This document shows positions 47,569 to 50,827 of a stretch of 64,000 nt of DNA, in pieces. Source of the DNA: Acidobacteriota bacterium (GTDB taxonomy: Bacteria > Acidobacteriota > UBA890); assembly GCA_965214245.1 (NCBI GenBank), contig CBDCBL010000005.1:28657-92656 (forward strand), read 5' to 3'. A program made the position numbers and the translations under genes. Every line of letters begins with the position of its first letter. Position 1 is the first letter of the stretch. The notes under the pieces are model-generated. The model did not search any database. It saw only the letters and a list, made by a program, of their open reading frames with translations, and was not told the origin of the DNA.

Positions 47569-47844
47569 ATGCCCATCTACGAGTATGAGTGTCGTCGCTG
47601 CGGCCACCGCTTCGAGCTCATCCAGAAATTCTCCGACAAGCCGCGGCAGCGCTGCCCGGAGTGTTCCGGCAAGGTCGACCGTCTGATCAGCCCGCCGGCG
47701 ATCCGCTTCAAGGGCACTGGTTGGTACGTCACCGACTACGCCGACAAGAACAAGGGCAAGCCCGCCGAATCCGAGGGCTCCGAGGCGGCGTCCAAGAAGA
47801 CCGACAAGAAGACCGAGACCAAGAAAGAAAAGAAGGCCTCGTAG
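47569..47844 (+). CDS. FmdB-family zinc-ribbon protein
   Basis: [13 protein letters not shown]...CPEC...[11 protein letters not shown]. Confidence 0.93.
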
Positions 47845-47929: not shown

Positions 47930-49222
47930 ATGCACGACCTCGCCAAACTGCGCAAAGATCCCGAGACGGCGGCCGTGGGCCTGGCGCATCGCAACGTCGA
48001 CTTCGATCTCTCCGACCTGCTGCGCCGTGACGAACGGCGCCGCGAGCTGATCCAACACGTCGACGGGCTCAAGTCGGCGCGCAACGAGGCCGGCAAGAAG
48101 ATCGGCGAGCTCAAGAAGCGCGGCGAGAACGCCGACGAGATCATTGCCGAGATGGCGGCCGTCAGCGAGCAGGTCGAAGCGCTCGATGGTGAGCTCAGCG
48201 GGCTCGAAGAAGGAATGCACACCGACCTGCTGGGACTGCCCAACCTGCCGCACGACAGCGTTCCGGTGGGCGGCGACGAGAGTGCCAACGTGGTCGAGCG
48301 CACTTGGGGTGAGCCGCGGGCGTTCGACTTCGAGGTTCTCGATCACGTGGACGTCGGCGAGAACCTCCGGATCGTGGATCTGGCGCGCGCCGCCAAGGTC
48401 ACCGGCTCACGCTTTCCGACGCAGTTCGGCGCCGGCGCCCGGCTCGAGCGGGCGCTGGCGGCGTTCATGCTCGACCTGGCGCGCGATGAGGGCGGTTACC
48501 TGGAGGTGCTGACGCCGTTCATGGTGTCGCCGGAGTCGATGGAGGCCTCCGGGCAACTTCCCAAGTTCGCCGATGAAGCTTTCTATCTGGAGCGCGACGA
48601 CTTCTATCTGATTCCGACGTCCGAGGTGCCGCTGGTGAACCTGCACCGTGGCGAGATACTGGCGGAAAGCGAGCTGCCGATCCGTTACTGCGCGTACACG
48701 CCGTGCTTTCGCCGCGAGGCCGGCTCGTACGGCAAGGACACGCGCGGCATGATCCGCGTCCACCAGTTCACCAAGGTCGAGTTGGTCGCCTACACGACCC
48801 CCGAGCAGTCATACGAGATGCTCGAAACCCTCACCGGTGACGCCGAACGCGTTCTGCAGCGTCTCGAGCTGCCGTATCAGGTTGTCAGCCTGGCGACCGG
48901 AGACCTCGGCTTCGCCGCCGCTAAGACCTATGACCTCGAGGTGTGGCTGCCGTCGCAAAACCGCTACCGCGAGATCTCGTCGTGCAGCAACTGCGAGGAC
49001 TTCCAGGCACGCCGCGCCGAGATCCGCTACCGCCCCGAGGAGGGCAAGAAGCCACGTCTCGTGCATACGCTCAACGGTTCCGGCATCGCCATCGGCCGCA
49101 CCATCGTTGCCCTGCTGGAGAACTACCAAGAGGCCGACGGCAGCGTCACGATCCCCGACGCGTTACGCCCGTATATGGGAGGCGCCGCGCGCATCGAGGC
49201 GCTGCAGCGACCGGGCAACTGA
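47930..49222 (+). CDS. serS: Serine--tRNA ligase
   Basis: [45 protein letters not shown]. Confidence 0.98.
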
Positions 49223-49329
49223 GGCGATCACGGTGGCGGGCGATCCTGTGTGCCAGGCAACGGGATACGTTCGGAGCGCTGGATTTCTCGCCGCATTTCG
49301 TTCACGCTGCCGAATCGAGGAGGAATCTC

Positions 49330-50706
49330 ATGCACCATCGACGCCTGTCCTTCGCAACAGTGATCGTGTTCACGGCCGTAACACTCGTCGTGACAAACGC
49401 CCCGGTAACTTCCGCGCAGCGCCTCGACCCGCGCTTCGGCGTCGGCGATGTGTTCCCCGACCTGACGCTACCGTCGCTCGAGGACGGCACGCCGACGCGG
49501 CTGTCGGACTTTCGCGGCCGCAAGGTGATGCTGCATGTGTTCGCCTCCTGGTGAGCGGGCTGCAGCGTGCACGTGCCCGGGTGGCACGAAGCGACAAAGG
49601 AGTGGCAGGACGCCGGTGACCTCGAGATGGTCGGCATCATCCAGGAGCAGCATCCCGACCGCGCCCGTCTCTTCATGCAGTGGAAAGAAATGGACTGGCC
49701 GATCCTCGTGGATTCCCTGAATCTGCTCGAAACGACGGTCGTGCCGTTGACCTTGGCCATCGACGAGCACGGTGTGATCCGCAAGATTCAACCACCGCGT
49801 GACGATCTCGAGACCTTCCGTGCCGAGTTCGTCGATGCGGAGTTCGAGCCACCGGGAGACATGACGACCTCGCTTCCTCAGATGAGCCGACCGGCGACCG
49901 ACGCCGTGTCGATGTATCTGTGGGAACGCGCTGCCGATCCCGACGCGCTGATCGCGGCGTTCGAACGCGCCGTCACCGCCGATCCAGGCCACGCCTACAC
50001 GCTCTTTCGCACCGGCGTCGCCTACCGCTGGCGTTACGACTCGCCGAGCTCGAAGCTGGAGGACTTCCAGGAAGCCGTGCGTTACTGGGAGCGGGCTCTC
50101 GATGTCGATCCCAACAACTACATCTGGCGCCAGCGCATCCAACAGTACGGCCCGCGGCTGGAGAAGCCTTACCCGTTCTACGACTGGGTGCCGACGGCGC
50201 GCCAGGCAATCGCGGCGCGCGGCGAGACGCCGGCAGCGCTGGTTGTGGAACCCGGCGGCGCCGAGTTTGCGAGCCCGCAAAGCGCCTTCGCCGCTGATAC
50301 CGAAGAAATCGATCCCCCCACTGTCGACGAGCGTATCTACCGCGACGACGGAGAGTTCGTCTCGGCCACGGCGACGATGGTCCCGAGCGTGATCGCAGCG
50401 GGCGGCAGCAGCCGGGCGCACGTCAGCTTCGTGCCCAACGAAGCCATCAAAGCGCACTGGAACAACGAGGTCGACGGCCTGGTGTTCTGGATCGACGTGC
50501 CCCCAGGATGGCAGGTCGACCGGCGCGCCGTGCGAGTGCCCAACCCGCCCGAGGTGGTGAGCCAGGAGACGCGCAAGATCGAGCTGGAGATCAAGGCGCC
50601 GGACGACGCGCGCGGCCGCGGCATCGCTTCTCCGCATACGCGCTCTACTACGTCTGTGAAGACGTCAACGGCGTGTGTTTGTACCGGCGCCAAGACGTCG
50701 CGTTGA
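49330..50706 (+). CDS. Exported thioredoxin-fold (TlpA/peroxiredoxin-like) selenoprotein with UxxC, a TPR-like region and a frameshifted DsbD-alpha-like C-terminus
   Basis: GAGGAGG RBS and ATG at 49330, signal peptide, FPDLTLPSL...LSDFRGRKVMLHVFASW-TGA(49552)-AGC; the frame continues into ORF 49567-50706. Confidence 0.85.
49572..49588 (+). promoter_or_regulatory. Candidate bacterial SECIS hairpin
   Basis: CGTGCC-CGGGT-GGCACG: 6-bp stem with a G-rich loop that starts 23 nt after the UGA. Confidence 0.65.
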
Positions 50707-50827
50707 TACTCGACGTCGAACGCCTAGCGCAGATTGGCCTTCCGGCCGCGACACGAGCTCGAGCTCGTCTCGAGCCTCATGGCAGCGTCGAAAGAGCAGG
50801 TGTGCTGCGGGTTAACATCAGCCGGTC

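Follow-up and report, generated by a model that had tools for sequence, protein, structure and literature searches.

A widespread family of predicted exported TlpA-like UxxC selenoproteins whose genes are annotated as shortened at an in-frame UGA

Thioredoxin-fold proteins with a UxxC motif, in which U is selenocysteine (Sec), are the commonest kind of bacterial selenoprotein, and the chemistry of the case described here is no surprise. ResA, DsbE/CcmG, TlpA and pneumococcal Etrx are reductases that work outside the cytoplasm. Known thioredoxin-fold selenoproteins have Sec as the nucleophile in a motif of the CxxC type (Table 1 of PMC13188914), and in the searchable text of two surveys selenoprotein classes are set by domain and motif (PMC13188914, 2026; PMC9312934, 2022). 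The bacterial selenocysteine insertion sequence (SECIS) is described, in the accessible part of PMC1088965, as lying directly downstream of the UGA and carrying a small apical loop that contains a G. Here we describe a gene in a 64,000-nucleotide (nt) stretch of DNA from an Acidobacteriota bacterium of the UBA890 lineage (assembly GCA_965214245.1, contig CBDCBL010000005.1, positions 28,657 to 92,656 of the forward strand; hereafter the window). The gene starts at window position 49330 and contains one in-frame TGA. Taking all of the evidence together, we consider it highly probable that this is a genuine selenoprotein gene with hairpin-directed recoding and an exported thioredoxin-like product.

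The list of open reading frames (ORFs) in the window cuts the gene into two pieces, 48943..49554 and 49567..50706, both of which share the frame of ATG 49330. Such a split had been noted in the original prediction, which was made from the sequence alone and joined a ribosome-binding site, the ATG at 49330 and a single frame running through the TGA into one gene; direct reading of the frame bears this out. With TGA read as U, the protein runs ...KVMLHVFASW-U-AGCSVHVPGWHEATKE..., so that U is residue 75, within the FASW-U-AGC segment of a TlpA/ResA-like thioredoxin fold and at the first-cysteine position of the WCxxC motif to which it had been assigned. The gene and its parts are laid out as follows.

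49317-49323, plus strand: Shine-Dalgarno sequence GAGGAGG, 6 nt upstream of ATG 49330, read directly.
49330-50706, plus strand: the predicted selenoprotein gene in its assembled form, 458 codons long, with a single in-frame TGA at codon 75.
49330-49416, plus strand: signal-peptide-like N terminus (MHHRR, a hydrophobic stretch, then TSA|Q), with the cleavage site guessed by eye.
49441-49803, plus strand: TlpA/ResA-like thioredoxin-fold domain, residues 38-158, from Pfam and from Foldseek on the model of an orthologue.
49552-49554, plus strand: UGA, putatively read as Sec, residue 75, the first position of the W-U-A-G-C redox motif.
49561-49563, plus strand: TGC for Cys78, the presumptive resolving cysteine of the UxxC motif, invariant in alignment A1.
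49572-49588, plus strand: SECIS-like hairpin, with stem 49572-49577 / 49583-49588 and loop CGGGU at 49578-49582.
49888-50217, plus strand: helical TPR-like region followed by an invariant RRRIQQYGPRL.KPYPFYDW segment, from Pfam TPR_14, the A1 profile and the model.
50359-50727, plus strand: C-terminal beta-sandwich domain, the last part of which lies in another frame within the window.
50617-50618, plus strand: two extra bases, which neither the same-genus orthologue nor the contigs of two other runs have.
50723-50727, plus strand: an extra C at 50723, which run X8 lacks, then TAG at 50725-50727.

Codons 2-74 have, relative to the same-genus orthologue, a ratio of nonsynonymous to synonymous substitution rates (dN/dS) of 0.20, and codons 76-429 one of 0.16, which argues for coding constraint on either side of the TGA. 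A reassigned genetic code does not explain the TGA, since TGA is otherwise the commonest stop in this genome and closes 1139 of the 2273 frames that are 400 codons or longer.

The TGA recurs in relatives. Among 41 related genomes searched in full, the gene turned up in 17, and the codon for residue 75 is TGA in 16 of the 16 places that cover the site, one of them the window's own; the four matches that do not reach residue 75 contain no TGA. A scan of contigs with one genome per species found 360 relatives, and in all 80 loci that were kept the U codon is TGA, 79 by a sequence pattern and one (L097) checked separately, since there a Ser replaces the Pro that the pattern required. Some genomes occur in both sets, and the two counts are not independent of each other. 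Left out of the counts were a spurious match on the opposite strand (L037) and a locus that is the same place as L044 (L048); three loci (L043, L045, L046) end short of the site. By the titles of their records, most kept loci come from Acidobacteriota, and the others from Gemmatimonadota, Planctomycetota, Verrucomicrobia, Methylomirabilota and Anaerolineae.

These counts bear directly on the reading of the TGA as a nonsense mutation or sequencing error in a pseudogene. Such a reading would fit the way in which standard annotation splits the gene, as well as the frame shift near the 3′ end of the same copy. However, a TGA that 80 of 80 loci and 16 of 16 places in relatives share at this codon is no private nonsense mutation, the outcome that the original prediction had named as its refutation, and it refutes the pseudogene reading for the family. 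The stretch 49300-49594, TGA included, is also without differences in contigs from three public runs, each of a different study, and dN/dS is about 0.2 on both sides. We give this reading almost no credence.

Homologues with a cysteine at the position of the U had been expected. None of the 80 kept loci has one, and there is no close homologue in Cys form among the 31 matches to a query of residues 30-110. The only relative with Cys is a distant one: among full-length relatives with 35-39% identity, the Sec position is Ser in five and Cys in one. These six proteins (P0234, P0237, P0239, P0242, P0188 and P0202) have SxxC or SxxS, in one case CxxS, and lack the YALYYVCE...C motif; by sequence they resemble a branch that does without Sec and possibly without redox activity. 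One other homologue (L040, at G017:C9:2003743-2004726) has two TGA codons inside its match, which ends at query residue 346.

Protein databases hold the part of the family behind the TGA. The 120 best of 1722 database matches are all 326-421 amino acids long and cover 71-81% of the 459-residue query. Ten entries that were fetched begin MHVPGW, MPGW or MW, directly after the TGA, at whichever start codon comes next. In an exhaustive search of representatives, nearly all of the 150 matches listed start no earlier than query residue 77, and with residues 30-110 as query, 31 of 31 matches cover 36-43% of it, solely the part behind the TGA. As the best 120 database proteins begin just behind the TGA, they are best read as shortened gene calls, in line with the expectation that standard annotation would miss such a gene.

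If those annotations were correct, the TGA at 49552 would be a real stop, and the locus would encode a 74-residue exported peptide and a separate 379-residue protein from GTG 49567. Every database entry seen is annotated in this way. Yet the division would cut the thioredoxin fold between strand 1 and the active-site helix and take both nucleophile and signal peptide away from the larger product, whereas a structural model folds across the site at high confidence. The downstream start, moreover, varies among MHVPGW, MPGW and MW with the next chance start codon, and two products would leave the nucleotide-level conservation right after the TGA unexplained. We find this alternative hardly credible.

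That conservation lies in the hairpin. As had been predicted, CGTGCC (49572-49577), CGGGT (49578-49582) and GGCACG (49583-49588) form a potential stem-loop 17 nt after the TGA, overlapping the codons for H-V-P-G-W-H. Its position and shape, with a 5-nt loop CGGGU, match the description of bacterial SECIS elements in the accessible part of PMC1088965. In 57 of 79 loci a 19-mer across this region, CACGTGCCCGGGTGGCACG, is found unchanged, and the third positions of the His, Val, Pro, Gly and His codons in the hairpin are the same in 77, 78, 76, 76 and 75 of the 79, respectively; at flanking four-fold sites of equally conserved residues the major base is found in 47-66 of the 79. The same picture emerges from alignment A1, which holds 32 family sequences and has, over the whole gene, 50 columns with a conserved four-fold-degenerate residue. 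Among these columns third-position entropy is lowest at P83 (0.0 bit) and V82 (0.2 bit) and third-lowest at G77 (0.74 bit), and the remaining columns range over 1.2-2.0 bits. Synonymous sites that are nearly frozen require selection on RNA or DNA rather than on the protein.

How the hairpin itself changes was followed in alignment A3, which consists of the window and the 79 loci. The 6-bp stem is paired in 97.6% of cells; three of the six pairs are invariant and two vary on one side only, from G-C to G·U, with G·U present in four sequences. One locus (L118) has a true double change from G-C to A-U, GTG...CAC becoming GTA...TAC at the cost of a His-to-Tyr replacement, and in L097 a U·G pair is retained through the change of Pro to Ser. 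Beyond the family, members of NF041054 (“ResA-like WAxxUGC motif-containing protein”), the best-matching NCBIfam model, have CCUGCC/GGCAGG at the homologous L-P-G-W-Q codons, with the second pair swapped from G-C to C-G. A 3-bp lower stem (A3 columns 15-17 with 40-42), which appears in some single-sequence folds, was rejected, as only 37.2% of its cells pair.

Several results weigh against the hairpin as a recoding signal. The segment 49540-49620 folds no better than shuffled sequences (z +0.78; in 162 of 200 shuffles the fold is as good or better), the plus strand of this G+C-rich window has a perfect 6-bp hairpin about every 271 nt, and 32 of the window's 677 TGA trinucleotides have a 6-bp hairpin 8-25 nt downstream. 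No Rfam family reached its gathering score in the window, and with expectation values (E) up to 10 the sole match near the site was a chance long noncoding RNA. Since the hairpin is unremarkable in a single sequence, the weight has to be carried by comparison with other sequences. There, the conserved HVPGWH amino acids by themselves explain why the first two codon positions are kept, but not why the third is. Covariation within the family is thin, with three of six pairs invariant and a compensatory change in one sequence, and the whole-structure covariation score for A3 is not above that of shuffles, 173 of 500 of which reach it, so that the case within the family rests on conservation and not on covariation. 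On balance the hairpin of the original prediction is present, and its nucleotides, those at synonymous sites among them, are conserved across the 79 loci.

The shared sequence also leaves a trace in metagenome assemblies. In four runs, the summed depth of metagenome contigs jumps from about 7-16 to 96-190 over 49555-49605, and many contigs end there. The depth rises because contigs of other organisms share the stretch, a word that breaks de Bruijn assemblies within the gene.

If the UGA is read as Sec, the genome should be able to make and insert it, and the original prediction had named the Sec machinery as a check. The genome (10 contigs, 95.4% complete) contains a tRNA-Sec (66.8 bits, anticodon TCA), SelA (446.9 bits) and SelD (299 bits, within an 803-residue open frame), all in favor of this reading. 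SelB is a point against Sec insertion: none was found in the assembly with TIGR00475, with the SelB wing-domain models PF09107 and PF09106 or by tblastn using a same-genus SelB, and the best TIGR00475 matches are two EF-Tu genes, IF-2, LepA, TypA and EF-G-like proteins. SelB is above cut-off in 22 of 26 relatives, the window's genome being counted among the 26. The flanks of selB in relatives can be placed in the assembly. At a same-genus selB locus (L134), the first 208 bases, which lie about 1.2 kb upstream of selB, match the last 208 bases of contig C9, and the sequence downstream of selB matches the last 491 bases of contig C10; with two further relatives, the selB flanks of three in all (G001, G009 and G004) match the ends of the same two contigs.

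C9:1356543-1356750 and C10:1406236-1406727: contig ends matching the flanks of the selB locus, by synteny with three relatives.

Because these flanks match the very ends of C9 and C10, selB most likely falls between the two contigs, in about 3.4 kb that the assembly lacks, judging from the order of the matching sequences.

The absence of SelB from the assembly would also be in keeping with read-through of the UGA by other means, whether by near-cognate insertion of Trp or Cys or by Cys-tRNA(Sec), with the hairpin doing no more than slowing termination. Against this are the presence of tRNA-Sec, SelA and SelD, the occurrence of SelB in most relatives together with a contig gap at its syntenic site here, and the location of the UGA at the nucleophile position, where known thioredoxin-fold selenoproteins use Sec (Table 1 of PMC13188914). 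Read-through without Sec therefore appears improbable, and Sec insertion is our preferred reading.

A second gene in the genome may use the same machinery. At C7:~348900-349300 (L025), a UxxC thioredoxin-like gene has an in-frame TGA in LINFWTPT-U-AACREEF and, 13 nt past the UGA, a 7-bp hairpin, GUGAGGA/UCCUCAC with loop GUUU. From these features it is probably another missed selenoprotein; the N-terminal region of its product looks helical. SelD itself is the C-terminal end of the 803-residue frame (C8:758088-760496; L020), with Cys rather than Sec in its active-site region, and the N-terminal half of that frame starts with GGGHSH, by eye a dinucleotide-binding-like motif.

The predicted protein has three structured regions behind its N-terminal segment. 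Residues 38-158 match Pfam AhpC-TSA (PF00578; 47.3 bits, cut-off 26) and Redoxin (PF08534; 43.4 bits, cut-off 26.6), and TPR_14 matches around residues 242-268 (24.4 bits, cut-off 23.5); the A1 profile also matches consensus TPR proteins. Because the window copy has a scrambled tail, the AlphaFold model was made not of the window protein itself but of a same-genus orthologue (L051), with 32 family sequences; the orthologue is 89.7% identical to the window protein over codons 1-429. The model (mean predicted local distance difference test score (pLDDT) 89.4, predicted template modelling score 0.85, blocks above 90 in pLDDT around the site) has one fold across the TGA: a helix at 5-22, a low-confidence linker, a strand at 66-71, U at the start of a helix at 76-88, helices at 187-296 and a beta-sandwich at 344-462. 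The redox motif is thereby placed after a Trp at the start of thioredoxin helix 1. Searched with Foldseek, the thioredoxin domain of the model finds ResA, DsbE/CcmG, TlpA and Etrx, with E about 2e-9 and target-normalized template modelling scores (TMt) of 0.75-0.80.

The signal-like N-terminal segment, read by eye, suggests that the protein is exported, and all 32 rows of A1 have hydrophobic N termini. Together, sequence and model make an extracytoplasmic thiol-disulfide reductase the most likely function. Thus the original prediction of an exported Sec oxidoreductase with the UGA in a UxxC motif is confirmed as an observation and supported as an interpretation, its export part resting on inspection by eye.

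Modeled alone, the C-terminal domain is a generic Ig-like sandwich (pLDDT 91.2), for which Foldseek finds only generic Ig-like, NEW3 and macroglobulin domains. The C terminus of the family, YALYYVCEDVxGxCLYRRQD, contains a CX6C motif with invariant cysteines C442 and C449, at the ends of the last two strands of the model (429-443 and 449-462). A resemblance of motifs raised the idea that this domain could be the N-terminal domain of DsbD (PF11412). The idea found no support: Pfam reports PF11412 in two of 31 members with E of 0.15 or worse, there is no DsbD chain among the 49 Foldseek rows listed, a profile search of the PDB gave no relevant match, and a weak lead in the Atlas (0.88) leads to a cluster with PF11412 in 11% of its members.

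This region is disturbed in the window. Compared with the same-genus orthologue, two bases at 50617-50618 are extra and throw the sequence out of frame 28 codons ahead of the stop in the assembly; the assembled frame stops early, at TGA 50704-50706, with its last ~30 codons out of frame, and the family's ...HRFSAYALYYVCEDVNGVCLYRRQDV...ER lies in another frame. What tells against an intact enzyme in this copy is that the C-terminal CX6C is out of frame and that the contigs of two runs agree with the assembly there, so the copy may be damaged. If so, the family would be a real selenoprotein family and this copy a decaying member, the bases at 50617-50618 being real and the last two strands and CX6C lost. 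In favor of decay, contigs of runs X1 and X3, from two studies, match the window exactly over 50172-50800. However, X1 could be the very sample from which the window came. The contigs of X4 and X8 lack the two bases, those of X8 also lacking the C at 50723 (X8 has no contig cover at 49810-50013). Without the three extra bases, the frame would reach TAG 50725-50727, the family's usual protein end. In another assembly of few contigs, a 94%-identical copy (L050) has indels within the same 20 bases that differ from those of the window, which suggests an error-prone site, and the out-of-frame stretch still encodes the family sequence perfectly, unexpected after real, old decay. Decay of this copy is possible, if doubtful; we favor a site prone to assembly or base-calling error.

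If the reading of the gene as a selenoprotein gene is correct, how would the protein be made and work? Translation would start at ATG 49330, and at UGA 49552-49554 the hairpin 17 nt downstream would recruit SelB with Sec-tRNA(Sec), so that Sec would be inserted in place of termination. Outside the cytoplasm the product would act as a thiol-disulfide oxidoreductase, most likely a reductase to judge by its fold family, in which Sec75 would attack a substrate disulfide and Cys78 would resolve the resulting selenenylsulfide. Re-reduction could be provided by a CcdA/DsbD-type membrane transporter, one gene for which (DsbD_TM/CcdA) is present in the genome at C10:1392849-1393502. The TPR region and the Cys-bearing sandwich probably bind the substrate or relay to it, which is speculative. 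A bolder and, in our view, unlikely version is a Sec-obligate three-domain extracytoplasmic relay, in which the UxxC domain would pass electrons to the C-terminal Cys pair while the TPR region holds the client, and RNA element and catalytic residue would be locked together. If true, the SECIS would dictate the conserved HVPGWH, and the RNA element and the catalytic residue would be tied to each other across several phyla.

The surroundings of the gene are also to be set against the selenoprotein explanation preferred here, as there is no conserved gene neighborhood, no neighbor family occurring in more than four of the 79 loci (L097 lying outside this set), and no RNA runs containing the stretch are listed. 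Directly upstream in the window, at 47930-49222, is a gene for seryl-tRNA synthetase, an enzyme that also charges tRNA-Sec. As a conserved partner it was rejected, since the adjacency is not kept across the 79 loci of the family. Further upstream, 47569-47844 encodes a small FmdB-type zinc-ribbon protein (Pfam Zn_ribbon_8) with ordinary Cys; an FmdB-family regulator is among the predicted selenoproteins of other organisms in the accessible text of PMC13188914.

Our findings describe what, from sequence comparison, is a real, widely distributed and systematically mis-annotated family of TlpA/Prx-like UxxC proteins with predicted use of selenium. The family is large, with 360 relatives in contigs of one genome per species and at least 1722 proteins in a clustered database, and in every record seen its members are annotated as shortened “hypothetical” or “TPR repeat” proteins, without signal peptide and active site. 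Given that close Cys forms are lacking, searches for Sec/Cys pairs would tend to miss it. With the family, a predicted exported selenoenzyme would be added to phyla of soil and sediment for which there is little description of how selenium is used, and it offers a clean example of a putative SECIS freezing synonymous sites.

How does the protein compare with described systems? ResA (Bacillus subtilis), CcmG/DsbE, TlpA (Bradyrhizobium) and Etrx (Streptococcus pneumoniae) resemble it in fold (Foldseek E ~2e-9 to 5e-7, TMt 0.61-0.80) and are also profile matches; they share the motif after Trp, and the likeness implies an extracytoplasmic location. Unlike the window protein they use Cys and consist of a single domain plus a membrane anchor, with 18-31% identity to it. 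Mycobacterium tuberculosis DipZ (5cyy, 2hyx) likewise has a thioredoxin-like domain followed by a beta-sandwich in one exported polypeptide. It ranks 34-35 in Foldseek (E ~1e-7), but only the thioredoxin part superposes (root-mean-square deviation 17-18 Å over all columns, query-normalized score (TMq) 0.24), and DipZ lacks both TPR and Sec; it is presumably also fused to a CcdA-type membrane domain. The relay between the c and n domains of DsbD is similar to the three-domain relay considered above, which would differ in running on selenium and through an unrelated sandwich.

Compared by domain and motif only, the protein has the same Pfam domains and the same UxxC as the UxxC TlpA/Prx-like selenoproteins of the two surveys, as far as their text could be searched (PMC13188914; PMC9312934). 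Under the rule of domain plus motif its sequence places it in that known kind. The searchable text of the two surveys contains no mention of TPR, signal peptide, periplasm, Gemmatimonadota or Planctomycetota and has 0 occurrences of Acidobacteria; the three-domain family is not described in the text of either, whose representative accessions were not compared. Nor is such a family described in the titles and abstract openings listed by searches of the literature on selenoproteins, bacterial SECIS elements and TlpA.

The nearest family described by a model is NF041054, and no NCBIfam model covers the family reported here: the window protein scores 64.3 bits against the NF041054 cut-off of 300, and a whole-genome search with the model gives 59.8 bits at this locus. 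The two are homologous over the thioredoxin and helical parts, with an hhalign probability of 98.9% and 28% identity when family columns 40-303 are aligned to residues 79-336 of a true NF041054 member (488.7 bits). In that member Sec is at the same position, after WASW, LPGW stands where the window protein has VPGW, and the hairpin lies at the same codons. In contrast, its motif is U-G-C (WASW-U-G-C) and that of the window U-A-G-C (UxxC), and its ~80-residue N-terminal extension is absent from the window protein. It is 350 residues long, ends where the linker of the window family begins and lacks the linker and the C-terminal CX6C sandwich. Judged by sequence, the gene is not a member of NF041054 but belongs to a sister family.

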